41,469 nucleotides of DNA, from contig JAZDKT010000078.1 of assembly GCA_043802685.1 (NCBI GenBank), positions 1-41,469 of the forward strand. The letters are read 5' to 3'. The stretch comes from Candidatus Falkowbacteria bacterium (GTDB taxonomy: Bacteria > Patescibacteriota > Patescibacteriia > Patescibacteriales > VMTK01). Position 1 is the first letter of the stretch, and every line of letters begins with the position of its first letter. Below are positions 17,728-40,634 of the stretch, piece by piece. Below the pieces are notes generated by a model. It was given only the letters and a program-made list of their open reading frames with translations, was not told where the DNA came from and ran no database searches. The translations under genes and the position numbers were made by a program.

Positions 17728-20700
17728 ATGGATAACTACAACCACCAAAAAATTGAAAAAAAGTGGGCGGAAAAATGGGTTAAGGATAAAACTTTTACGC
17801 CGGATCTGAAAAAAGCCAAAAATCCTTATTACGCGCTGTTTATGTTCCCCTACCCCAGCGCGGAGGGTTTGCATATCGGCAATTTTTACGCGTTTACTTG
17901 CGTGGATGTGATGGCGAAATATAAAAAATTGCAGGGCAAAGATGTATTTGAGCCGATCGGCTTTGACGCTTTTGGCATGCACAGCGAGAATTACGCCTTG
18001 AAAATTAACGAAACCCCGAGAAAAATGCTTAACCGAACCATAGCTAATTTTAGGAACCAGCTAAGCTCGGCCGGATTGGGATGCGATTGGACGCGTGAAG
18101 TGGATACGACAGATCCTGAATATTATAAATGGACTCAGTGGATATTTGCCAAGCTTTTTGAAAAAGGCCTGGCTTACCAAAAAGAAGCTCTGCTGAACTG
18201 GTGTCCGGGCTGTAAAACAGTCCTGGCTGACGAGCAGATTGAAAACGGGGTCTGCGAAAGATGCAAAACCGCTCCGGAAAAAAAGATCATGAAGCAATGG
18301 TTTTTTAGAATAACCGCTTACGCCCAGCGCCTGCTTGACGGCCTGGAAACAATGGACTGGTCGGATATTACCAAGCACGCGCAGAGGAATTGGATTGGGA
18401 GATCGGAAGGAGCGATGATTAAGTTTGAAGTAAGAAGTAAGAAGTTAGAAGTAAAAAAAATCATTGAAGTCTTTACTACTCGCCCGGATACTTTATTTGG
18501 GGCGACTTATTTTGTCATGTCTCCGGAACATCCTCTTGTTGAAAAGATAACTTCTCCCGAGCAAAAAAAAGAAGTGGAAAAATACATTAAAAAAACAGGG
18601 GCAAAATCCGACCTTGAGCGCGCTGAAGCCAAAGAAAAAACAGGAGTATTTACCGGCGCTTACGCCGTGAATCCGGTAAACAATGAAAAAATTCCTGTCT
18701 GGATCGCTGATTATGTCTTAATGGGCTATGGCACCGGCGCGATTATGGCAGTGCCGGCGCATGACGAGCGGGATTTTGAATTTGCCAAGAAATATGGTTT
18801 GCCGATAAGGCAGGTTGTGGCGGGAAAAACACAAAAACACAAAAACACAAAAACACAAAAACACTGTTTAATTATTCATGGTTCACCGCGGTGTGACAAA
18901 AGTAAAGATACGGATTATACACCCGATAATATAAAGCACTGGCTTGGCTGGTTAAAGAAAAGATTAGAAAATAATAATTATAAGGTATATAATCCGCAAA
19001 TGCCGACTCCGTGGGAGCCGGATTATCAGGAATGGAAAAAACAAATTGATAAATTAGATATTAACGAAAATTCTGTGATTGTTGGCCATAGCGCTGGCGG
19101 CGCGTTTGCTGTTCGCTGGTTGAGTGAAAATAAGAAAAAAATTGACAAATTAATACTTATTGCAGCCGGCAAGACTATTACAGATGATAATAAGAGATTG
19201 CATAATTTTTATGATTTTAAAATTAATCAAAATATAAAAAATAGAGTTAATAAAATAATTATTTTTGTTTCCGAAGATGAAAAAAAATATAGAATAGCAA
19301 GCGCTAAATTATATCAAAAAGAATTGGGCGGTGAATTGCAGATATTAAAAGATAGAGGACATTTCACTGTTGCAGCTAGCCCAATCAATAAAGAGTTTCC
19401 AGAATTATTAGAAGAAATTCTAAAACAAGAATGTTTTGCCGGCGATGGCATAAACATAAACTCTGATTTTTTAAACGGCTTAACAACTAAAGAAGCAAAA
19501 GAAAAAATAATTCAATGGCTGGAGGAAAATGAACTGGGCAAAGGAACTGTGAATTATAAATTGCGCGACTGGTGCATTAGCCGGCAAAGATACTGGGGTC
19601 CGCCTGTGCCGATTGTTTACTGTAATAAATGCGGGGTTCAAGCCGTGCCTGAAAAAGATTTGCCGGTGGAGCTGCCTGAGATGGAAAAGGGCTGGGAGCC
19701 GGCCGGAGACGGACGCGGACCGCTGGCCAAAGTAAATAAATTTATGAAAACCACTTGCCCGAAATGCGGCGGTCCGGCCGAACGCGAGCCGGATGTAATG
19801 GATAATTTTTTAGATTCTGCATGGTATTACTTCCGCTATATTTCTCCGCGCGACAACAAAAACATATTTGATAAAAAATTAAGCAAAAAATGGCTGCCGG
19901 TGGATCTGTATGTCGGCGGCAACGAACACGCAGTACTTCATCTGATGTACACCCGCTTTATCGCCATGGCTTTTCATGATCTTGGTTTAATTGATTTTGA
20001 CAATCCTTTTAAAAAATTCCGAGCCAACGGCATGATCCTGAAAGACGGCAAAAAAATGAGCAAGTCAAAAGGCAATGTCGTCAGCCCGGAAGAATACGGC
20101 GCCAAAGTCGGCTATGACGCGCTAAAAACTTATCTTTTATTTTTGGGGCCGTTGAATGAAGACCGATCATTTAGCGATGCGGGCGTGCAAGGCGCCAAGC
20201 GCTGGATGGAGAGGATAGATCGGCTTAAAGAAAAAATTCACCCCGTTAAATATGTATCGCCCCGTGAAACCGCTTCGTGGCAACGGGGCAAACTTGACGG
20301 CGGTCTTAAACTACCGTCTGTAGCTAATTCATTTAACGGGGTAAAGAATAATTATGAAGATGATAAAAAAATAATAAAAAAACTGCATCAAACCATTAAA
20401 GCGGTAACAGACGATTTTGAAGATCAAAAATACAACACGGCAGTGGCTCGCCTGATGGAGCTTACCAACAGCTTGAGCGCGGAAAAAAATATTTCCGGTA
20501 AAACTTGGGAAAAATTCTTAATTCTTATCGCTCCTTTCGCGCCTGCCTTAGCCGAAGAGCTGTGGTCCTCCTTCGCTAAAGCTACGGCGGATGAAAGCAA
20601 AAAATGCAAACAGTCAATTTTCAATCAAAGGTGGCCGAAACATAATCCTAAATTAATTAAAGACGATATTATTAATCTTGTGATTCAAATCAACGGCAAA

Positions 20701-20856
20701 TTGCGCGATACTATTGAGGCGCCAATTAATATAAGCGAGAAAGAAGCGCAAAAAATCGCTTTGGAGAGTGATAAGATTAAAAAGTGGACGAACGGCAAAA
20801 AAATTATTAAAGTGATATTTGTTAAGGGGAAACTAGTGAATATTGTAATAAAATAA
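17728..20856 (+). CDS. leuS: leucyl-tRNA synthetase with several insertions, including an alpha/beta-hydrolase domain
   Basis: HIGN (HIGH-type) motif, CP1 editing-domain TTRPDTLFGATY, YKLRDWCISRQRYWG, and KMSKS (KMSKSKGN). At 1042 aa it is about 200 aa longer than typical bacterial LeuRS. Confidence 0.92.
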   Translation: MDNYNHQKIEKKWAEKWVKDKTFTPDLKKAKNPYYALFMFPYPSAEGLHIGNFYAFTCVDVMAKYKKLQGKDVFEPIGFDAFGMHSENYALKINETPRKMLNRTIANFRNQLSSAGLGCDWTREVDTTDPEYYKWTQWIFAKLFEKGLAYQKEALLNWCPGCKTVLADEQIENGVCERCKTAPEKKIMKQWFFRITAYAQRLLDGLETMDWSDITKHAQRNWIGRSEGAMIKFEVRSKKLEVKKIIEVFTTRPDTLFGATYFVMSPEHPLVEKITSPEQKKEVEKYIKKTGAKSDLERAEAKEKTGVFTGAYAVNPVNNEKIPVWIADYVLMGYGTGAIMAVPAHDERDFEFAKKYGLPIRQVVAGKTQKHKNTKTQKHCLIIHGSPRCDKSKDTDYTPDNIKHWLGWLKKRLENNNYKVYNPQMPTPWEPDYQEWKKQIDKLDINENSVIVGHSAGGAFAVRWLSENKKKIDKLILIAAGKTITDDNKRLHNFYDFKINQNIKNRVNKIIIFVSEDEKKYRIASAKLYQKELGGELQILKDRGHFTVAASPINKEFPELLEEILKQECFAGDGININSDFLNGLTTKEAKEKIIQWLEENELGKGTVNYKLRDWCISRQRYWGPPVPIVYCNKCGVQAVPEKDLPVELPEMEKGWEPAGDGRGPLAKVNKFMKTTCPKCGGPAEREPDVMDNFLDSAWYYFRYISPRDNKNIFDKKLSKKWLPVDLYVGGNEHAVLHLMYTRFIAMAFHDLGLIDFDNPFKKFRANGMILKDGKKMSKSKGNVVSPEEYGAKVGYDALKTYLLFLGPLNEDRSFSDAGVQGAKRWMERIDRLKEKIHPVKYVSPRETASWQRGKLDGGLKLPSVANSFNGVKNNYEDDKKIIKKLHQTIKAVTDDFEDQKYNTAVARLMELTNSLSAEKNISGKTWEKFLILIAPFAPALAEELWSSFAKATADESKKCKQSIFNQRWPKHNPKLIKDDIINLVIQINGKLRDTIEAPINISEKEAQKIALESDKIKKWTNGKKIIKVIFVKGKLVNIVIK
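18826..18864. repeat. tandem 8-mer array ACACAAAA inside leuS
   Basis: aaaacacaaaaacacaaaaacacaaaaacacaaaaacac encodes ...KTQKHKNTKTQKH... Confidence 0.9.
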
Positions 20857-23886: not shown

Positions 23887-24252
23887 TTAAAAGTCCGCTT
23901 TCTCTTTAATAGCTTGGGCTTCCACAGACATAAGGCATTGGCCATTAATCATACCGCCTCGTTCAATACTTAAAATCTTACATTTAATGCCGCCCTTTAT
24001 CCACCCTGTTTTAGTGATGTGTAATTTTTCTTTCGCCTCAACATTACCTTCTGCCTTGCCAGCTACAATAATGCTGTTAGCCTTAATGTCAGCCTTGACC
24101 ATGGCCGACTTACTAATCTTAACATTTTTAGTATTTTCAATCATGCCATCTATCTTGCCGCTCACAACCAAATCTGCCAGGGATGATAATTTTCCCTCAA
24201 GTTTGGCTGAAGAATCAATAATGGTAGTGGAATATTTATTTTTTCCAAACAT
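23887..24252 (-). CDS. bactofilin (DUF583) family cytoskeletal protein
   Basis: Repetitive beta-helix pattern IDSSAKLEGKLSSLADLVVSGKIDGMIENTKNVKISKSAMVKADIKANSIIVAGKAEGNVEAKEKLHITKTGWIKGGIKCKILSIERGGMINGQ. Confidence 0.75.
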   Translation of the reverse strand: MFGKNKYSTTIIDSSAKLEGKLSSLADLVVSGKIDGMIENTKNVKISKSAMVKADIKANSIIVAGKAEGNVEAKEKLHITKTGWIKGGIKCKILSIERGGMINGQCLMSVEAQAIKEKADF

Positions 24253-24662: not shown

Positions 24663-25238
24663 TTACATTAAATTGCCCAGGGGTCCTAAATCTAAATTCA
24701 ATTCTTCATCTTCAATTCCAAAAACCGTTTTTAGCTCCTGCATTTTCTTCTCCATGGCTTTAAAAGTCATTCCTAACTTTTGAATTTCCGTATTAGAAAG
24801 AGATCCTTTTTGCATCCGCCTAATAACCTCTTTTTCCATTAACCTCCTTAATAACTCCACGAGAGTTAAAACTAATTTTGCTATGCCTTGTTCCGCTTTT
24901 TGGGGATTATCAGCATCAATGAGCTTGGGAATACTTGCTTCTGCCCTCTTTATTTCTTGCTCCAGCTTGGCAATATATTCTAAATCTTCCTTGGTTGGTT
25001 CTCGGCTGGGATAATAATCAGTCCCGGCGCTTTTCCAATTTTTACCGGACATTTCCTCTACTTTAGAAATAGAGGTTAGAAGAACTCTTAATCCTAAATA
25101 TATAAGATCTACATCAGCTACTCTTATTGCTACATCCCCGTTTATCACAGCCCCTTTTTCAAGAACTTTATCTAAAGCATCAATAAGAGTTACTCGCTGT
25201 TCTTTTGGTTTGGATAAAATTATTAGTGTATTTGCCAT
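24663..25238 (-). CDS. apparent fusion of a GvpJ/M-like (GvpA-family) domain and a GvpK-like domain
   Basis: aa ~15-62, TLIDALDKVLEKGAVINGDVAIRVADVDLIYLGLRVLLTSISKVEEM, is the GvpA-family core. aa ~113-175, QKAEQGIAKLVLTLVELLRRLMEKEVIRRMQKGSLSNTEIQKLG, is the GvpK signature (GLA.LVLT.VELLR.L.E+QA.RR...G.L). Confidence 0.7.
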   Translation of the reverse strand: MANTLIILSKPKEQRVTLIDALDKVLEKGAVINGDVAIRVADVDLIYLGLRVLLTSISKVEEMSGKNWKSAGTDYYPSREPTKEDLEYIAKLEQEIKRAEASIPKLIDADNPQKAEQGIAKLVLTLVELLRRLMEKEVIRRMQKGSLSNTEIQKLGMTFKAMEKKMQELKTVFGIEDEELNLDLGPLGNLM

Positions 25239-26071
25239 TTAATAAAATTGTAAGGCGGCCATGGGCCGCTATACTCAAAATTAAAACCTTTAGATTTATA
25301 TTCTTTATTTAATTTATTAATTTCTCTTGCAAAGTCTTTTAATTTTTCTTCTGAAATAAGAAAAATCGCATTTAAAATCATGGGCAAAGATTTACCTGTC
25401 AATTCTTTTTCTAAAATTTTACCTTTGGTTCCAGCAACCGCGCATTCTTTTAAATTTCTAAAAAAACTGTCAATATAATTTTCCAAAGCTCTGTCTGCTT
25501 CCCTTAAAACAGCATCATCTATCTGCTTTTGCATAAAATATGCCGTTCCTTCGGGAAGCAGGGCTATTTCTGTTTCTTTTTCCAGAACCACCGGACTAAC
25601 TCTTTTAACTTCATTACTAAAAGTTTGGCGGTTTAAATACGCCTTTACCGACCACTCTTGTTTTCCTGATAAATTTCTTAGATTTTCTTTGAATTTAAGG
25701 TAATATGTTTTAAGCATTTCCTTTATTTTTTCTTCGCTGTTAAAAATAGCGCCGAATTTCATGGGAATTGCCTCTTTTAATCTTTTATTTTTAAAGGGAT
25801 TCTTTTCTGCTGGAAAAGGAGAAAATTGAAATTCCATCGCTTCCTCTATTACCTGCTCATGAATTTGAGCTTTTTCTTTTACCCATTTTAAATTTTCTTG
25901 CGCTTTATTTTGAATTTCTTTTGAGCTGAATTCCTTTAAAGAAACATTGCTAACCACTGCTTCTAAATCCCTGAAAAAGACAGTAAAAACTTGACCCCTA
26001 TCAATTCCTTCTGCGGAAAATTTGGAATTAGTTTTTGCTCTAACGCAATAGAGATATAATCCCTGTTTCAT
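25223..26071 (-). CDS. GvpF/GvpL family protein
   Basis: N-terminal GLYLYCV start, the A.VS pattern (LEAVVSNV), and the C-terminal FEYSGPWPPYNF motif, as in GvpF/L. Confidence 0.8.
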   Translation of the reverse strand: MKQGLYLYCVRAKTNSKFSAEGIDRGQVFTVFFRDLEAVVSNVSLKEFSSKEIQNKAQENLKWVKEKAQIHEQVIEEAMEFQFSPFPAEKNPFKNKRLKEAIPMKFGAIFNSEEKIKEMLKTYYLKFKENLRNLSGKQEWSVKAYLNRQTFSNEVKRVSPVVLEKETEIALLPEGTAYFMQKQIDDAVLREADRALENYIDSFFRNLKECAVAGTKGKILEKELTGKSLPMILNAIFLISEEKLKDFAREINKLNKEYKSKGFNFEYSGPWPPYNFIKWQIH

Positions 26072-28665: not shown

Positions 28666-29553
28666 ATCTTTAAATGCAATTCTACAAAATTAAAAGCAGG
28701 AATAGGGCCAATATATATAAACTTAATTCTCTTATTGTACTTTTTGATTAAAACATGCACTCTTTTATCAAACTCTCTTTCATTTTTTTTTTGAAACCAA
28801 GAAAGCATAACTGAAAATCATTGAATCTCTCATCGGTTCTAAAAATCTTATCAACTCTCTTTCTTTAAACTTTACCGCTAATTCTTTTAAAGATTTCAAG
28901 AGCTCTCCGGCTTCCCTTTCCCTTTTAGAGTCAACTGCCTTTTGGATTAATTCACCTACGCCGGCAATTCTAAATTGATGGGGATTTTTCTGGGCGTTTC
29001 TTTTTGCAATTTGAATTTCTTGATTCTCCTCAACTATTTCTTGAAAAATACTTGGCATATCTTTCCAAAATGCCCTAATGCCCAATTCTACTCTCCCTTC
29101 CACTATTGGAAATGTTTCTAAAAATTCTTTTCTTTTTGGCTTTAATATTTTTTCTTTAACATCTTCCGCGCTCTTGGCCACTGTGCCAAAACGAACCGGT
29201 AAAACATCATATCCTTGTTTCATCACTTCTTCAATAACCTTTTGATGGCGGGTTAGGTGTTCTTTAATAAAAGAATACTGATCTTTTGCCGTGTCAGTGA
29301 CTGCCATTGCCAATCCTCCTTTATTAATAGTATATACTTCTTTTCCTTCCTGCCCCGTTAGATATTTGTTCTCTTGATTCTTTTTATTCGCTCTTGTAAT
29401 ATCTAACGGGGCTTGCCGCAAAATTTTAAACTTTTGGGGCTTGCTTTCTTTAATAACACAATAAAGATATTTACCCTGATCTGAGTCTGATTGCCCCGCA
29501 GGCCTGTCATTTGGGACTCTGATTTGGGATTTTCCTTTTGCTTCAGCGGCCAT
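28662..29553 (-). pseudogene. GvpF/GvpL family gene interrupted by a +1 frameshift in an A10 run (possibly rescued by slippage)
   Basis: Frame 0 (29553..28780) ends ...IFSYAFLVSKKK-TGA. The +1 frame continues ...NEREFDKRVHVLIKKYNKRIKFIYIGPIPAFNFVELHLKI-TGA. This supplies the conserved GvpF/L C-terminus and ends in an ATGA overlap with the ArsA-like start at 28665. The start is placed at MAAEAKGK (29553), downstream of the preceding gene's stop. Confidence 0.7.
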
Positions 29554-29584
29554 AATTTTAATAATAATTGCTTTATAAAAATCT

Positions 29585-29929
29585 CTATTCTTGCGAAGTT
29601 GGTTTAGCCACAACAATGACCTGTTTTATAGCCACCACCAATCCGGCAGCTGCTATAAAAGCGATAAAATTTTCCAAAATTGAAGCGACTGCCAATGTTA
29701 ATTTTCCAAGCTGTAAACCGCCGACTCCAATTAAAAGCAAGGTGATCACGGCCACAAGAAACGGAATGCTTTCTTTTTCTTTTACATTTAAAAATCCAAC
29801 AATTAAACCTAAAACAAACAGAATAACTAATAGATACGGAATAGCGGCAAAGCCAGCCAGCACTGCAAACGCTATGCCTCCGATTAAAGCCCAGCGGCCA
29901 ATAGTTGTAAGATTATATTTTAATGCCAT
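29585..29929 (-). CDS. small 4-TM membrane protein, hypothetical
   Basis: Four hydrophobic helices (WALIGGIAFAVLAGFAAIPYLLVILFVLGLIVGF...FLVAVITLLLIGV...FIAFIAAAGLVVAI). Confidence 0.5.
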   Translation of the reverse strand: MALKYNLTTIGRWALIGGIAFAVLAGFAAIPYLLVILFVLGLIVGFLNVKEKESIPFLVAVITLLLIGVGGLQLGKLTLAVASILENFIAFIAAAGLVVAIKQVIVVAKPTSQE

Positions 29930-30092: not shown

Positions 30093-31160
30093 TTATTTAA
30101 TAATTAAAGAATTTCTTACATCTTCTTCCTTAAAAGAATATCTTTGATTCCTGTTTTCTCCAAAAAAACTGCCACAGCTTTTGCAATAACTTTTTAGAAT
30201 ACTATAAGCGCGAACTATTTTTTTCATTTGTTCTGCTGTTTCCTGATTATCTTGATGCTTATCCGGATGATATTGATGGGAAAGGGCATAATAAGCCTTT
30301 TTAATTTCTTCGGGACTAGCTTCCTCGCCCAGGCTCAATAATTTTCTTGCTTTATTTATTATTTCAAAATTACCTAAACTAAGATTAATATTAACAAAAC
30401 TATAGGGGGGCATTGGGCCAATATACTTAAACCTTAATTTCCCTTCGTATTTTTTACCCAATTCTTGCATTTTACTATCCAATTCAAACTCTCTGGACTT
30501 CTCTATTAAGAAAGAAAAGTTGGCTATCATGTCCTCGCTGATTAATTTATTTAAGGTGAAGTCATGAGCCATGATTCTTAAGAATGCTTCAATGTTCTTG
30601 ATATTAGTTTGCTTATAAGCTTCTGCCTGCCGCTGGATTAGTCTGCCTAACTTCAATTTAAGCGGCAGACCCAGAATACTTGTTTTGACGGACAACTGCT
30701 GTCTTAGCCCCTGAATTTCTGAATTAGTGTTAACTAATTCTTCAAGCAGCTTTTTTTGATCCCACCAGACTTGAACCGCAAACTCAACCTTGCCTGCTGT
30801 TGTTTTTAAAGCTGTTTTAAATTGAATATAAGCTTTCGCTAAAATACATTTTATTTCTTCATTATTAGGAGCAATAATCCCAAAAGCCATTGGCGCAACA
30901 TTATAATCTTTCATTATTTCTTCATTCACTTGCTGGTGGATGGCAATATGCCTTGTTAGTTCTTTTTTATCTAAACGATCAAAATTAATAACCGGGGTAT
31001 CTGAAACTGCCGCTGCTATATCTTGATAATTGAGAATGTTGATAACTTGATGATTAATTCCAATATAGCTAAGGCCGCTGGCATTGGCTTGGCCGAAAGC
31101 ATCGCGGGCGGCTCTTTTATCTTTATTCTGCTCAATTACGCAATAAATATATTTCCCCAT
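30093..31160 (-). CDS. GvpL/GvpF family protein fused to a C-terminal J-domain
   Basis: GKYIYCV start and the FKYIGPMPPYSF motif (GvpF/L). aa ~265-325, EEIKKAYYALSHQYHPDKHQDNQETAEQMKKIVRAYSILKS, has an intact HPD tripeptide (J-domain, nt about 30186-30368). Confidence 0.75.
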   Translation of the reverse strand: MGKYIYCVIEQNKDKRAARDAFGQANASGLSYIGINHQVINILNYQDIAAAVSDTPVINFDRLDKKELTRHIAIHQQVNEEIMKDYNVAPMAFGIIAPNNEEIKCILAKAYIQFKTALKTTAGKVEFAVQVWWDQKKLLEELVNTNSEIQGLRQQLSVKTSILGLPLKLKLGRLIQRQAEAYKQTNIKNIEAFLRIMAHDFTLNKLISEDMIANFSFLIEKSREFELDSKMQELGKKYEGKLRFKYIGPMPPYSFVNINLSLGNFEIINKARKLLSLGEEASPEEIKKAYYALSHQYHPDKHQDNQETAEQMKKIVRAYSILKSYCKSCGSFFGENRNQRYSFKEEDVRNSLIIK

Positions 31161-31264: not shown

Positions 31265-32341
31265 TTAATTTGTTCTTTTTCTATCAGCAATAGCGGCGAT
31301 TAACGCTCCTTTGGCAACAGTATAAAGCGGATGCGGAGCCATCCTTACTTCCTTTACTTTTAAAGGAAAACTCGTTTTCCCAAGTATCTCTTTAAACCTT
31401 TCAATAAATCCCTGCGGATTTGCCGTACCTCCTGAAACAATTATCGGAATGGGAGTTTCAAATTCAGGAATTTTGCCCTTTTCTTCAACCTCTTTTTTTA
31501 TTTGATCCAAAACATATTCAATCAGGTGATCATAATAAATAGAAAGGGCATGCTCAGTTTTAGTCATACTGCTTTCGCTCTTTTTAAGATTTAAAAAGTT
31601 TTCCTTAAAGGTAGTAATTTTGCTGATTGGCTCATTGGTAACAATGGCAACTTGTTCATCAATCCAGTCCCCGGCTTTAGCCACGCTGAAAGAAAACACC
31701 GGCGCAGACATTAAGGATAGGCAGACATTAGCCATTCCGCCGCCAAATGATATGCCCATGCCCGTAAAATTATCTTCTGCTAATTCAGAAAAAATTACCG
31801 CTAAACCCTCGTTCAAGGGCTTTGCTTGGTACCCCCATTTTTCAAGAAATCCTTTTATTATATTTTGATGGTAAATATTATCAAAATCCGCGTCAATTGG
31901 AGGGCCGGGAACAGAAAAATAACAAATTTCATTTTTTTCAGCAGGCGGCTCTAAAACGCTTTTTATTATCAATTCAATAATTGGCAATGCTTCGGTTTCT
32001 TTAGCGCTAATTACTCCGCTCTTTAGCGGTCTTCTGGTGTTGCCGCCAAAAACATTAGCAAACTTCATAGCATCGCTTCCCACCACATAAATTTTATCTT
32101 GACCCAGGACATATTTGACATTACTTTTTTCTAATATCCCTTGGGTAAATTCAGAATATTCAACATCGAAAAAAGCATCTCTTTGAGCCCTAAAACTTAC
32201 CTGTGAATTTATTTTTTGAGCGCAGTAAATAAAAGCGGTGCCGACATCTAATCCTTTGCCCATTTGCGGTAAAACCAATTTATTTGTTTTTGTACGATTC
32301 TCTTTAGCCATAGAACCGCGGGCATGTTGTTGTTTTGTCAT
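31265..32341 (-). CDS. actin-fold (MreB/ParM/Hsp70 superfamily) ATPase
   Basis: Phosphate-1 GLDVGTAFI, the MreB-like RPLKSGVIS, phosphate-2 GISFGGGMANVC, and the adenosine motif IIVSGGTANPQGF. Confidence 0.7.
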   Translation of the reverse strand: MTKQQHARGSMAKENRTKTNKLVLPQMGKGLDVGTAFIYCAQKINSQVSFRAQRDAFFDVEYSEFTQGILEKSNVKYVLGQDKIYVVGSDAMKFANVFGGNTRRPLKSGVISAKETEALPIIELIIKSVLEPPAEKNEICYFSVPGPPIDADFDNIYHQNIIKGFLEKWGYQAKPLNEGLAVIFSELAEDNFTGMGISFGGGMANVCLSLMSAPVFSFSVAKAGDWIDEQVAIVTNEPISKITTFKENFLNLKKSESSMTKTEHALSIYYDHLIEYVLDQIKKEVEEKGKIPEFETPIPIIVSGGTANPQGFIERFKEILGKTSFPLKVKEVRMAPHPLYTVAKGALIAAIADRKRTN

Positions 32342-32873: not shown

Positions 32874-33273
32874 ATAACCTAGAAGACTTTAATTTATCTT
32901 TTGCTTGATCCAATATATCAAAATTCTCTTTTTCTGCCATTCTTAATTCATCTATAAACTCCTTGCTTTTGCTTTGCAGCTTTTTTAATAACATTATCCT
33001 CATCTCTAAATTTTTTTCTAATTCCTTAACTTCCTGATAGGTCTTTTCTAAAGCTATTTGTTCCCGCGCTATTTCCTTTTGATGCTCATTTATTTTTTTA
33101 ATTAAATCAATGTTCTCTTCTTTTACTTTTGAATTAATTTGTTGCGCTTCTTCCTTTAAGGGAGAAAGCGGTTTTCTGCTCATAGCAAACTCTATCTGGG
33201 GCGCTTTGTTTAATTCTTCCCCTGCCTCCTTTAATCCTTCTATGATGCTTTTGGGGCTTGCATTTGATTCCAT
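32866..33273 (-). CDS. coiled-coil protein, hypothetical
   Basis: 135 aa with heptad-rich K/E sequence. It overlaps the 3' end of the AAA+ gene by 34 nt and the next gene by 8 nt. Confidence 0.4.
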
Positions 33274-35450
33274 ATTATTTTAAAATGATTATTAGTAATT
33301 TTAAATTTTTGGCAGTTTTTTAAACTTTTTAACCCGACCGCTTCACTGCCTGCCCGCAAAGCCTTAGTAAGCGGGCGCGAATCATCGCGGATAAATTTAA
33401 CAAATTCTCTAATAGCTAAAATTGAAGCTTGCTTGCAAATGGCTTCAATATCAGATCCTACTAATCCTTTGCTTTCTTTAGCTAAATTTTCTAAATTCAC
33501 ATCTTTAGCCAATGGCTTGCCTCTTGTATGAATTTTAAATATCTCCAACCTTGTTTTCCCATCCGGCTTTGGCACCTCTAAAATAAAATAAAAGCGGCCG
33601 GTTCGGCGCAATGCAGGGTCAATCAAATCCAAGCGGTTGGTAGCTCCAAGGATTACAACCCCTTTAAGCTCTTCAATGCCATCAAGTTCAGTTAAAAATT
33701 GGCTTACTACTCTCTGAGTTACAGAGGAGTCAACGTTTTGGCTGCGAGCAGGAACCAAACTGTCCAGCTCATCAAAAAAAACAATGCAAGGACTGGCTTG
33801 CTTAGCTTTTTTAAAAACTTCCCTTACTGCTTTTTCAGATTCTCCTATGTATTTTGATAAAAGCTCAGGACCCTTGACAGAAATAAAATTTACGCCGCAT
33901 TCAGACGCTACTGCTTTGGCTATTAAAGTCTTGCCTGTTCCGGGAGGGCCGTAAAGCAAAATTCCTTTAGACGGACTGGTTTTGGTATAATCAAAAAGTT
34001 TGCTATATTTCAATGGCCACTCAATGGTTTCTTTTAAGGTCTGCTTTATTTGTTCCAAACCTCCCACATCCTTCCACCTAACATCAGGAATTTCAGTAAA
34101 AATTTCTCTTAAAGCTGACGGCTCAACTTCTTTTAATGCTTCTATAAAATAATCCGCGGTTACTTCCATCTCTAAAAGTTTTTTATAAGGAATATATTCT
34201 TTAGCAAATTCAATCTCCGGCATGATTTTTCGCAGAGCCGACATGGCTGCCTCTCTAACCAAAGCTTCTAAGTCTGCCCCCACAAAGCCATGGGTTATTT
34301 CAGATAGCTTGTCTAAATTAACATCTTCTCCCAGGGGCATGCCTCTAGTATAAATTTCCAATATTTCTTTTCTGCCATTTTTATCAGGAATACTAATGGC
34401 AATCTCTCTATCAAATCGGCCCGGTCTTCGCAATGCCGGATCCAGGGTATTGGGAATATTAGTGATTCCAATAACTACCAAATTGCCCCTTGATTCCAAG
34501 CCATCCATTAAAGCCAGCAATTGGGCAACCACTCTTCTTTCCACTTGTTTTTCTCCGCCCATATCCTCTCTTTTAGGGGCAATGCCGTCAATTTCATCTA
34601 TAACTAAAATGGCAGGGGCATTAGCTTGGGCATCCTCAAATACTTCTCTTAATCTTGCTTCTGACTCCCCATAAAATTTGCCCATGATTTCAGGCCCGGA
34701 AATAGAAGTAAAATAAGCATCAGTTTCGTTAGCTACCGCTCTGGCAATCAAAGTTTTGCCGCAACCAGGGGGTCCGTATAATAAAACTCCCTTGGGAGGA
34801 TCTATGCCTAATCTCTCAAAAACCTCGGGATATTTTAAGGGAAGTTCAATCATCTCTCTAATCCTGCCGATTTCTTTTTTAAGTCCTCCGATGTCTTCAT
34901 AAGTGACTCCTACTCCCTGCTTGTCTTTTGCTTCTCCCTTGATCTTGATTAAAGTAGCGGGAGTAATCAAAACAGCTCCTTGAGGGTCAGTAGCTTCCAC
35001 TAAAAAATCCTGGGATTTACTGCCAAAAAAGGTTACTCTTATTTTATTTCCTTTTAAAACCGGGGTGCCGTCTAATATTTTGGCCAAATATTCACTACTT
35101 TCTTGTTTTTTAAAAGATCCGTCTAAACTTAAAGGAGATAAAACTAAAGTATTAGCTTTCTCATAAGAAGTCTTTTGAATTTCAACCTTTTCATCTAAAC
35201 CTGTCTTAAGGTTGTCTCGCGCTATGCCATCTATTTGAACAATCTCTTTGCCGCGATCTTCTGAATAAGCGGGCATTAATTTGGCTACTACTTCTTTACC
35301 CTCCACTTTTAACCTAATTATATCTCCTGCATCTGCCTGAATTTTTGCAAAATATTCAGGGTCTACTCTGGCTATTGCCCTGCCCGCGTCCTTGCTCCGG
35401 GCTTCTGCTATCTTAAGAACTATTGATTTTGTTTGCGCTTTTTTAATCAT
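33240..35450 (-). CDS. Cdc48/VAT/p97-like double-ring AAA+ ATPase
   Basis: Cdc48-type N-domain ([22 protein letters not shown]...[11 protein letters not shown]). Two AAA modules carry Walker A GPPGCGKT and GPPGTGKT and Walker B ILVIDEID and IVFFDELD, with second-region-of-homology motifs. Confidence 0.88.
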
Positions 35451-35547: not shown

Positions 35548-36114
35548 CTAAAATATTTTTTTTAACTTCACTTTTAATATCCCGTTTTTAAAATCTATTT
35601 TACGGGACTGGAAATCTACGCTGTCCGGCAGTAAAATCTCTTTGGCATATTTCCTGTCTTGATTACCGGCTTCAATTATAAGAATGTCTTTCTTGAGATC
35701 AAGTTTAATGGCTTTTTCATCAATGCCGGGAAGTTCAGCGATAATTAAAATGTGATCCTTCTCGTTAAAAACATCAACTATCGGCTCTCTATTTTCCACA
35801 ACCTCAACTTCCTTTTTACCGGCTTTTTTTTCAACAGGCCGAATATTGCCAAAAGTTTGCACTCGCGGCCGGCCGCCAATACCGCTTCTTATTGAAAATC
35901 CATAAACCCCTTTAGCATCCTTTCCTTTTCCCAAACCCCTGATTTTTCCTTCTTTTCTAATCTCTCCCCCGGCTTCTTCAACTTTTTCCGCTAAATCAAT
36001 AAATTTCCCCAATCCCTTAATTAATCCTCCAACCAAAGGCAAATCTTCAAGCATCTCTAATTCTTCCCTTGCCTGATCAGTGTTCTTTTTTTCACTTTTT
36101 TTATATTTAACCAT
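35548..36114 (-). CDS. Hsp20/alpha-crystallin domain protein (GvpH-like position)
   Basis: The C-terminal alpha-crystallin pattern is VDVFNEKDHILIIAELPGIDEKAIKLDLKKDILIIEA......YAKEILLP..VD.....IDFKNGILKVKLKK. Confidence 0.7.
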   Translation of the reverse strand: MVKYKKSEKKNTDQAREELEMLEDLPLVGGLIKGLGKFIDLAEKVEEAGGEIRKEGKIRGLGKGKDAKGVYGFSIRSGIGGRPRVQTFGNIRPVEKKAGKKEVEVVENREPIVDVFNEKDHILIIAELPGIDEKAIKLDLKKDILIIEAGNQDRKYAKEILLPDSVDFQSRKIDFKNGILKVKLKKIF

Positions 36115-38532: not shown

Positions 38533-38838
38533 TTAATAATTGCCAATCTCCGGCAACCCGGTATCAGCGCCCAGCCCCTTCCTGCCTTTTCTACCGTCTT
38601 TCGGAACCACTCCTCTGCCTTTGCAAACAGAACAAGCCAATCTATGATGAGCAAAAACCCCTGTTCCATTGCAAGCCGTGCATGTCTGGTGTGGAATATC
38701 CGCAATCATAACTATTCCCTTTCCTAAACAAACTTGGCAATTAGAAAGAATTGAGGGAACTCCAAAAGGATCTTTGCCTTTGCCTTTGCAAAAGGCGCAA
38801 ACAGCTTTTTTATAATTAATCGCTATTTTCTTAGGCAT
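38533..38838 (-). CDS. DnaJ-type cysteine-rich zinc-finger protein (4 x CxxCxGxG)
   Basis: CAFCKGKG, CQVCLGKG, CTACNGTG and CSVCKGRG are the four-repeat zinc-centre pattern of the DnaJ central domain. No J-domain is present. Confidence 0.65.
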   Translation of the reverse strand: MPKKIAINYKKAVCAFCKGKGKDPFGVPSILSNCQVCLGKGIVMIADIPHQTCTACNGTGVFAHHRLACSVCKGRGVVPKDGRKGRKGLGADTGLPEIGNY

Positions 38839-39882: not shown

Positions 39883-40086
39883 CTAAGCAGTGGCGGTAAG
39901 GCCAATAGCCTCTGCGTATTTCAGCCAAGTCTCAACAGAAGCAACTACTGCTCGAACTTCTACCGCTAAAAGTTCAATGCCGACTAATGATACTCTTACC
40001 CAAGCGTCAATTACAACGCCTTTGTCAAGAATTCTATCAACTACTTCCACTAAGCTTGAACTGGCCATTGATTTTTCTACAGCCAT
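39883..40086 (-). CDS. gvpA: major gas vesicle structural protein GvpA
   Basis: [63 protein letters not shown] is near-identical in pattern to canonical GvpA. The start is placed at MAVEK (40086); an upstream in-frame ATG at 40101 would add MKIKD. Confidence 0.93.
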
Positions 40087-40634
40087 ATCTTTTATTTTCA
40101 TTCAGTCAAGCCAAAGCTAAATAATATGAAATGACTGGATGAAATTTATTAATAGTTTATTAAAATTCGACCTTTGTTATTTTATTAAAAATAATATCAC
40201 CGCATGATTTCATTTTGAAGAAAAAGTTTTTCTGTAACGATCTTGATGCTCCGGCGAGGAAGAAGAAATAAAATATCGTTTTTTTCTCCCTTGTATTAAT
40301 CGTTGAAATAATTTAATTAATTTTTGTTTTATCTTGTCCCGCATAATAATTTTTATATTTTAATAATTTTAACCAACAAAAAAACCTAAAAAAATTTAGG
40401 TTTTCCATTTTTTGGGTGCCGACCCTTTTTATTAAATTGTCATTTCTTGCCTGATTAAATAAATCATCTTGCGCAACGCCTGAAACAATATAATTATTCT
40501 TAATCATTATTATAGCAAACTGTTTTAAACTATGCAATGCCTTTTATTACCTGTCTCTTATTGTTAACACTTTGAAGCCAACAAGAAACACAAATTAATT
40601 TATAAATGATATTCTTTGTATTTTTTATCCATTT

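Follow-up and report, generated by a model that had tools for sequence, protein, structure and literature searches.

What GvpF and GvpL proteins do in the making of gas vesicles is a long-standing question, for which two crystal structures have given no mechanism. The stretch of DNA analysed here (the window, 41,469 nucleotides of contig JAZDKT010000078.1 from Candidatus Falkowbacteria bacterium, assembly GCA_043802685.1) raises this question in a particular form. One gene of its gas-vesicle cluster, gvpF-J (30093..31160, minus strand), had been read from the letters alone as a GvpF/L protein continued by a J-domain. What is a J-domain doing at the end of a gas-vesicle protein, and on which Hsp70 would it act? 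The analysis confirmed that gvpF-J is a genuine in-frame fusion of the two domains. The answer that we consider probable is that its product, GvpF-J, serves as a class-C (type III) J-domain protein for gas-vesicle assembly, in which the GvpF domain would bind the shell protein GvpA and the J-domain would load DnaK.

Two domains in one reading frame

The open reading frame (ORF) of gvpF-J begins with ATG and encodes 355 residues followed by a stop codon, with no internal stops. The Pfam profile GvpL_GvpF (PF06386) aligns over its whole length (positions 1–245 of 245) with residues 2–257 (30390..31157, minus strand), with an E-value of 7e-57 and 193.7 bits against a cut-off of 23.6. The DnaJ profile (PF00226) matches residues 273–324 (30189..30344), which hold helices I–III of the J-domain, with an E-value of 6e-15 and 55.5 bits, the curated cut-off being 27.8. 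Both scores greatly exceed what chance would give and bear out the sequence-only reading, which had assigned the first ~255 residues to GvpF/L and the last part to a J-domain with an intact HPD motif. The coordinates of the J-domain were identical in a separate genome-wide profile search. Its sequence is KLLSLGEEASPEEIKKAYYALSHQYHPDKHQDNQETAEQMKKIVRAYSILKS, and the motif H298-P299-D300 (30261..30269) is read directly from the translation. These are the only two Pfam domains of the product, the G/F region, the zinc finger and the DnaJ C-terminal domain being absent from the chain. When the last 92 residues were compared with the sequences of the PDB, all 35 matches were J-domains. Scans for promoters and terminators around the gene gave nothing exceeding the shuffled expectation.

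An AlphaFold2 model was built from 120 homologues on a sequence (P0001) identical to the window protein except for A292V, and reached a predicted local distance difference test score (pLDDT) of 87.8 and a predicted template modelling score (pTM) of 0.81. Its N-terminal part shows the two-lobed alpha/beta fold of GvpF, with Foldseek matches to 6L5D_B (E-value 8e-17, TMt 0.87) and 4QSG (TMt 0.80), and its C-terminal part matches J-domains, superposing on 5NRO_B with a root-mean-square deviation of 1.1 Å over 52 columns at 36% identity. The latter chain is the J-domain of E. coli DnaJ in complex with DnaK (PDB entry). GvpF-J thus resembles the studied GvpF and GvpL proteins (4QSG from Microcystis, 6L5D from Anabaena, and those of Halobacterium and B. 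megaterium) in the end-to-end profile match, in the fold (TMt 0.80–0.87) and in its setting within a gas-vesicle cluster, beside two unfused paralogues. It differs from them in belonging to a separate clade and in ~95 additional C-terminal residues, the J-domain and its tail, to which nothing corresponds in any studied GvpF/L protein.

The 120 best homologues in a collection of 5.8 billion proteins are 45–67% identical to GvpF-J, and those that carry names are from Patescibacteria. Every one of them combines PF06386 with PF00226, and the HPD motif is invariant in their alignment. This, together with the uninterrupted frame, disposes of the earlier worry that the fusion might be the artefact of a missed stop. 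The motif is also present in all 138 rows of a wider alignment (A2), whose rows were picked for HPD, and within the last 130 residues in 141 of the 149 best 50%-identity representatives, a set that was not selected for HPD and extends to identities of ~26%. Among full-length representatives only one, P0226 (349 residues), is without it; the motif region reads ...ARMQQSP..., a natural degenerate J-domain.

Conservation extends to both sides of the J-domain. The linker (residues 258–272, INLSLGNFE..., 30345..30389), at the end of which helix I begins, contains the near-invariant columns I258, N259, L260, L262, G263, N264, F265, E266, A271 and R272 in the alignment of 120 homologues. The match covers positions 4–55 of the 63 of the DnaJ profile, with positions 56–63, corresponding to helix IV, unmatched. 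In the model, helices I–III superpose on 5NRO_B and the position of helix IV is taken by a conserved, family-specific tail (residues 325–355, 30096..30188), which consists of YC326..., a variable loop and YSFKEEDVxNSLIIK and is modelled confidently with the exception of the loop (331–339). In the same alignment C326 is invariant, and Y341, S342, D347, V348 and S351 are conserved in at least 90% of the sequences. Of the Cys-containing tail (CKSC) that had been pointed out earlier, only this first cysteine is invariant; the second is found in 84 of the 120 homologues, so that no CxxC is conserved.

With class-A DnaJ the protein shares a DnaJ-type J-domain (36% identity to that of E. coli), and the cluster encodes a complete four-repeat CxxCxGxG domain as a separate gene. 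The modules are placed on different proteins, and GvpF-J itself is devoid of the G/F region and the DnaJ C-terminal domain. Against the class-A DnaJ profile (TIGR02349) it scores 47.6 bits, far below the cut-off of 377.2, with the J region alone aligning; judged by this comparison it is not a DnaJ orthologue.

Distribution of the fusion and its link to DnaK

Searched exhaustively with HMMER, a set of 1.84 billion representatives yielded 185 matches at E<=1e-30. A further scan, in which every GTDB species was represented by one genome and the GPLPPYSF subset (A3) of the 138-sequence alignment served as the query, gave at least 583 matching stretches. In all, the family extends over about 20 phyla. 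The best 80 of the stretches come from 19 named phyla, including Chloroflexota, Thermodesulfobacteriota, Planctomycetota, Actinomycetota, Nitrospirota, Omnitrophota, Zixibacteria and Bacteroidota. In Patescibacteria the cluster is rare: the fused protein was found in two of 400 evenly sampled genomes, besides the genome of the window. The clusters that do occur there share one layout, of which the zinc-finger gene is a part.

Two carriers are in culture: Ktedonobacter robiniae (L075), with both domains confirmed by Pfam, and Octadecabacter arcticus 238, whose plasmid pOA238_160 encodes WP_015497776.1 with GvpL_GvpF, DnaJ and the HPD motif. The Octadecabacter locus (L125, 68343-69425 of the record) is a compact cluster, devoid of Cdc48, ArsA and DnaK and flanked by insertion sequence (IS) elements. 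Possession of gas vesicles is among the main traits of polar Octadecabacter, and the paper on the genomes covers the gvp cluster with no mention of a J-domain or DnaJ (PMC3646047). NCBI names members of the family only as 'GvpL/GvpF family gas vesicle protein', both Pfam domains being detected automatically. In a literature search of incomplete coverage, neither the fusion nor a gvp-linked DnaK was found to be described, and the family is apparently undescribed so far.

A tree of the GvpF domain only, with 84 fused proteins and 153 unfused paralogues, placed all fused sequences in a single clade (support 96) that requires one change of state. The paralogues were taken from the same loci, which had been picked with fused queries, and the tree thus speaks for orthology and not for the frequency of the fusion among all gas-vesicle clusters. 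Each locus has exactly one fused copy. The Patescibacteria sequences form a subclade (support 99) nested beside sequences from Bacteroidota and KSB1. On this phylogeny GvpF-J is a single, old fusion and constitutes one orthologous group.

A second GvpF-J was seen in the same bin, on the 2.4-kb contig C24 (L009; 832-2016, minus strand). It has 394 residues, is ~46% identical to the first, keeps an intact HPD motif and both domains by Pfam, and is directly followed by an ArsA-like gene. The contig may belong to a second cluster or to another organism, two origins between which its G+C content and tetranucleotide use did not discriminate.

The link to Hsp70 was analysed in 83 fusion-bearing loci with up to 10 kb on each side, onto which the window proteins and the DnaK of the genome were mapped. 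In 26 of the 83, from at least seven phyla, a true DnaK is encoded inside the gas-vesicle cluster on the same strand; this count is a lower bound, because many loci are incomplete. These gvp-linked DnaKs are full-length Hsp70s by Pfam and 45–62% identical to the DnaK of the Falkowbacteria genome. In five Anaerolineae loci the gene is the direct upstream neighbour of gvpF-J; elsewhere it lies at the 3' end of the cluster. In all eight genomes tested, a higher-scoring housekeeping DnaK was present at another place, and the gvp-linked copy is therefore an extra paralogue. The same genomes have 2–5 Hsp70 genes per 1.7–8.2 Mb, from which the chance of finding an Hsp70 gene in a given 21-kb stretch can be roughly estimated at 1–3%.

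In a DnaK tree the gvp-linked copies fell into at least 2–3 separate groups: one with 13 members, which crosses phylum boundaries with a support of 100, a Chloroflexia pair, and an Anaerolineales group beside the housekeeping DnaKs of Chloroflexota. The recruitment of DnaK into gas-vesicle clusters has therefore happened repeatedly. The gvp-linked proteins keep K70, E171 and the interdomain linker, with R167 in every case and N170 in most of them (E. coli numbering), and look like ordinary J-regulated Hsp70s. The association also holds in the reverse direction. Starting from a gvp-linked DnaK of 570 residues (L064), four relatives with 68–83% identity, picked only for their long contigs, were all found in clusters that encode a PF06386+PF00226 protein, in the order Cdc48 - (PF06386+PF00226) - ... 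- HSP70.

Three observations were made alongside. In four of four Desulfobacterota-type loci (L132-L135), a histidine kinase and a response regulator lie immediately upstream of the 569-residue gvp-DnaK, a hint that the chaperone end of the cluster is expressed under regulation. A single ORF of 1002 residues in L073, apparently joining DnaK to GvpF-J, was rejected as an artefact, as a run of N at 1818-1927 keeps the frame open; such pseudo-fusions are a pitfall for automated counts of domain architectures. Weak tblastn matches to DnaK flanking the gas-vesicle cluster of the Patescibacterium G036 proved to be two MreB genes (22–23% identity).

The cluster of the window has no such gene. As noted in the sequence-only reading, no dnaK lies there, and the HSP70 profile (PF00012) had zero matches across the window contig. 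The genome assembly (892 kb, 117 contigs, 86% complete) does encode a single canonical dnaK together with grpE and dnaJ. The gene is split by an assembly break over the ends of contigs C71 and C85, which overlap by 141 base pairs, with grpE upstream and a full-length class-A dnaJ downstream (contig C85). The encoded DnaK is canonical in its catalytic residues, in R167/N170/T173 (E. coli numbering) and in the VLLLD linker. The other proteins of the genome that match the HSP70 profile are two MreBs (C58, C74) and a YegD-like protein (C21), none of them in the cluster. The YegD-like Hsp70-family protein (~135-1394 of C21, plus strand) comprises a nucleotide-binding domain only and is unlinked to the cluster.

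The proposed mechanism and its alternatives

When a J-domain meets an ATP-bound Hsp70, its HPD loop and helix II dock on the chaperone and trigger ATP hydrolysis, and the Hsp70 then traps the substrate presented by the remainder of the J-protein. In GvpF-J this remainder would be the GvpF domain, the presumed GvpA-binding (client) module. GvpF is the only (Halobacterium) or the primary (B. megaterium) partner of GvpA, and it contacts the hydrophobic N-terminal part of that protein (PMC7688916). In the model systems this binding is transient. A study of B. megaterium proposed it as a GvpA chaperone (PMC11445434). The binding of GvpA or accessory Gvp proteins by GvpF/L is known only for the haloarchaeal and B. 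megaterium proteins (PMC7688916, PMC11445434).

We infer a physical interaction between the J-domain and DnaK, with GvpA as the client and assembly as the step that is served. In this scenario the N-terminal GvpF fold would hold GvpA, or GvpJ/M, while the HPD loop of the C-terminal J-domain would dock an ATP-bound DnaK and trigger ATP hydrolysis. DnaK would clamp onto the adjacent GvpA or its relatives GvpJ/M, and GrpE would then reset DnaK, the client staying soluble and being passed to the growing vesicle. Because the Patescibacteria clusters examined encode no DnaK, the partner here would be the single housekeeping DnaK of the cell; in many larger genomes it would be the paralogue encoded in the cluster. 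The earlier suggestion of an Hsp70 recruited and activated by the J-domain at the site where GvpF/L acts finds strong comparative support in the invariance of HPD, in the complete grpE-dnaK-dnaJ set of this genome, in the 26 of 83 loci with a linked DnaK and in the four of four reverse matches; the partner then thought conceivable, the neighbouring Volactin-type protein, is not supported (see below).

The closest functional analogue is the HscB (Hsc20)-HscA-IscU system. HscB and HscA are a J-protein and an Hsp70 dedicated to one client and encoded with its pathway. Like HscB, GvpF-J would be a class-C J-protein with a client-specific domain, and a weak NCBIfam match of its J-domain to HscB was recorded. 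Many of its relatives have a specialised Hsp70 paralogue in the same cluster. It differs in that its J-domain is C-terminal and not N-terminal and that its client-binding fold is unrelated. Such a dedicated paralogue beside the J-protein, found in 26 of the 83 related loci, is missing from this genome, where the housekeeping DnaK would serve, and the gvp-DnaKs group with ordinary DnaKs instead of forming a long-diverged lineage, in a tree that holds no HscA sequence. TopJ, for terminal-organelle assembly in Mycoplasma pneumoniae, and DjlA are likewise bacterial J-proteins for one structure and gave weak NCBIfam matches, but have nothing in common with GvpF-J outside the J-domain.

The main rival of an assembly role is one similar to that of auxilin or of a disaggregase, which we regard as unlikely. 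In that case GvpF-J would be located on vesicles, assembly complexes or shell protein that has collapsed or aggregated, and would recruit DnaK, along with Hsp20 and Cdc48, so that accessory proteins are removed or GvpA is pulled out to be reused or degraded. The gene neighbourhood is suggestive in this respect: a Cdc48 homologue is present in 64 of the 83 loci as the commonest immediate upstream neighbour of gvpF-J, and Hsp20-Cdc48-GvpF-J is the commonest gene order (Hsp20 in 55/83, the zinc-finger protein in 48/83, ArsA in 39/83). This order parallels a network of small heat shock protein, Hsp70 with J-protein and AAA+ disaggregase, of which IbpAB-DnaKJE-ClpB is an example, and in Anaerolineales DnaK occupies the slot held elsewhere by Cdc48. 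Auxilin/GAK, known from the uncoating of clathrin, resembles GvpF-J in its layout: the J-domain, by which Hsp70 (there Hsc70) is brought to a protein shell, is placed C-terminal to a domain that binds a lattice. These proteins, however, are eukaryotic, have unrelated binding domains and act in disassembly. In the model systems, GvpF/L proteins act early in assembly and are essential for it (PMC7688916), and compact fusion-bearing clusters (Octadecabacter, L131) are found without Cdc48.

Several points weigh against the proposed loading of DnaK by GvpF-J. The partner in this genome is deduced only from the presence of DnaK elsewhere in it, and the client could be another Gvp protein instead of GvpA. 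The family-specific tail stands in place of the canonical helix IV, and some basic residues with which E. coli DnaJ contacts DnaK are missing from helix II of the Patescibacteria proteins. We take Y291 and A292 to be the equivalents of K26/R27 (alignment by hand, E. coli numbering). No DnaK is encoded in the Patescibacteria clusters examined (the window, L019-L021, L130, L131, G036 and G250). In 57 of the 83 loci DnaK was not in the fetched stretch, many of these being incomplete, and complete clusters such as that of the Octadecabacter plasmid are without DnaK too. The figure of 26 in 83 refers to fusion-bearing clusters only, and the chance figure is rough.

The replaced helix IV, the less basic helix II and the Patescibacteria clusters that encode no DnaK would also fit a J-domain that is structural or vestigial, or that contacts a partner other than Hsp70, such as the Cdc48 ATPase, with Hsp70 uninvolved. 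We consider this very improbable, as HPD stays invariant over hundreds of sequences, down to ~26% identity, for which it is difficult to account if the motif does not exert its one known function. Its loss in P0226 alone among full-length representatives and the repeated recruitment of DnaK paralogues into gas-vesicle clusters point in the same direction.

There is hardly any likelihood that the target of the J-domain is not Hsp70 but the Volactin-type actin-fold ATPase encoded next to it (31265..32341, minus strand; PF25216, 2e-95). Its gene and gvpF-J are neighbours on one strand in this window as well as in L019, L020 and L057, and actin shares its fold with the nucleotide-binding domain of Hsp70. 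Volactin, however, occurs in only 9 of the 83 loci, with L021 and L130 among the Patescibacteria relatives that lack it, does not match the HSP70 profile and has neither interdomain linker nor substrate-binding domain, which make up much of the docking surface of the J-domain in 5NRO, whereas the genes that co-occur with the fusion are true DnaKs. By these comparisons the Volactin-type protein is not supported as a credible partner of the J-domain. DnaK loaded by GvpF-J for assembly stays, in our view, the probable reading.

The surrounding cluster and the meaning of the fusion

The genes gvpA, N, O, J/M, J-K and F/L all lie on the minus strand at ~23.9–40.1 kb and form a co-directional gas-vesicle cluster. 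The first part comprises gvpA (39886..40101; ORF with the GvpA motif, tblastn), which encodes the shell protein and presumed client, an unknown gene, the gene of a stand-alone DnaJ-type zinc-finger protein of 101 residues with four CxxCxGxG repeats (38533..38838; PF00684 and sequence), another unknown gene, gvpN and two further unknown genes. An Hsp20/alpha-crystallin gene (35548..36114; Pfam), a Cdc48/VAT-type double AAA+ ATPase gene (33240..35450; Pfam), two unknown genes, the Volactin-type gene and gvpF-J make up the middle. They are followed by a gene for a small membrane protein, an unfused gvpF/L (28780..29616; Pfam), a tandem ArsA/Get3-like ATPase gene and gvpO. The unfused paralogue at 28780..29616, which is frameshifted in the assembly and matched in two tblastn pieces, lies outside the fused clade in the GvpF-domain tree. 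The last part consists of a second unfused gvpF/L (25223..26071; Pfam), which is GvpL-like with GvpL as its best NCBIfam match, a GvpJ-GvpK fusion, a GvpJ/M-like gene and, at the end of the cluster, a bactofilin gene (23887-24252; Pfam), of which no homologue was found in the 83 related loci. In three Patescibacteria relatives ftsZ directly follows the gas-vesicle cluster (L019, 13254-14444; L020, 16382-17863; L131, 11068-12468). Elsewhere in the window, a leucyl-tRNA synthetase (17728-20856, plus strand) has a serine-hydrolase domain (PF06821) inserted after its editing domain.

The zinc-finger protein is a probable co-worker of GvpF-J, to which it would supply in trans a second module of DnaJ. 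Stand-alone genes with four CxxCxGxG repeats are also present in L045, L052, L057 and L098, and Anaerolineales clusters have 3–4 of these zinc-finger genes in tandem just downstream of the GvpF-J/GvpF pair. Together with Hsp20 and the Cdc48-type unfoldase, the zinc-finger protein probably belongs to the same proteostasis module as GvpF-J. A broader proposal, which we put forward tentatively, is that most gas-vesicle clusters of uncultured bacteria carry a mobile, dedicated proteostasis machine made of GvpF-J, a zinc-finger holdase, Hsp20, Cdc48 and, where genome size allows, a private DnaK.

The finding bears directly on the function of GvpF. Interaction screens only suggest it as a chaperone of GvpA (PMC11445434). 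A natural, ancient fusion of GvpF with a J-domain, and one so strongly conserved, is independent evidence for such a role, and so is the repeated capture of DnaK by the same clusters, which together with the fusion names a concrete partner. The function of GvpF is made directly testable, with Octadecabacter arcticus 238, a cultured carrier, as a possible experimental model. Many gas-vesicle clusters do not assemble in E. coli. Heterologous expression of gas vesicles, as in acoustic reporter genes, causes proteotoxic stress in this host (PMC12848028), and matching pairs of J-protein and Hsp70 could help.

If the broader proposal of a dedicated machine is true, a prokaryotic organelle would have Hsp70 as one of its integral assembly factors, and bacteria would have a third kind of pathway-dedicated Hsp70 system, after HscA/HscB and HscC/DjlC. 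Hsp70 probably helps to handle the sticky shell protein. In Patescibacteria, a costly flotation organelle and its chaperone adaptor have been retained in a genome of less than 1 Mb, and their version would be the minimal form of the system, which plugs into the only DnaK of the cell.

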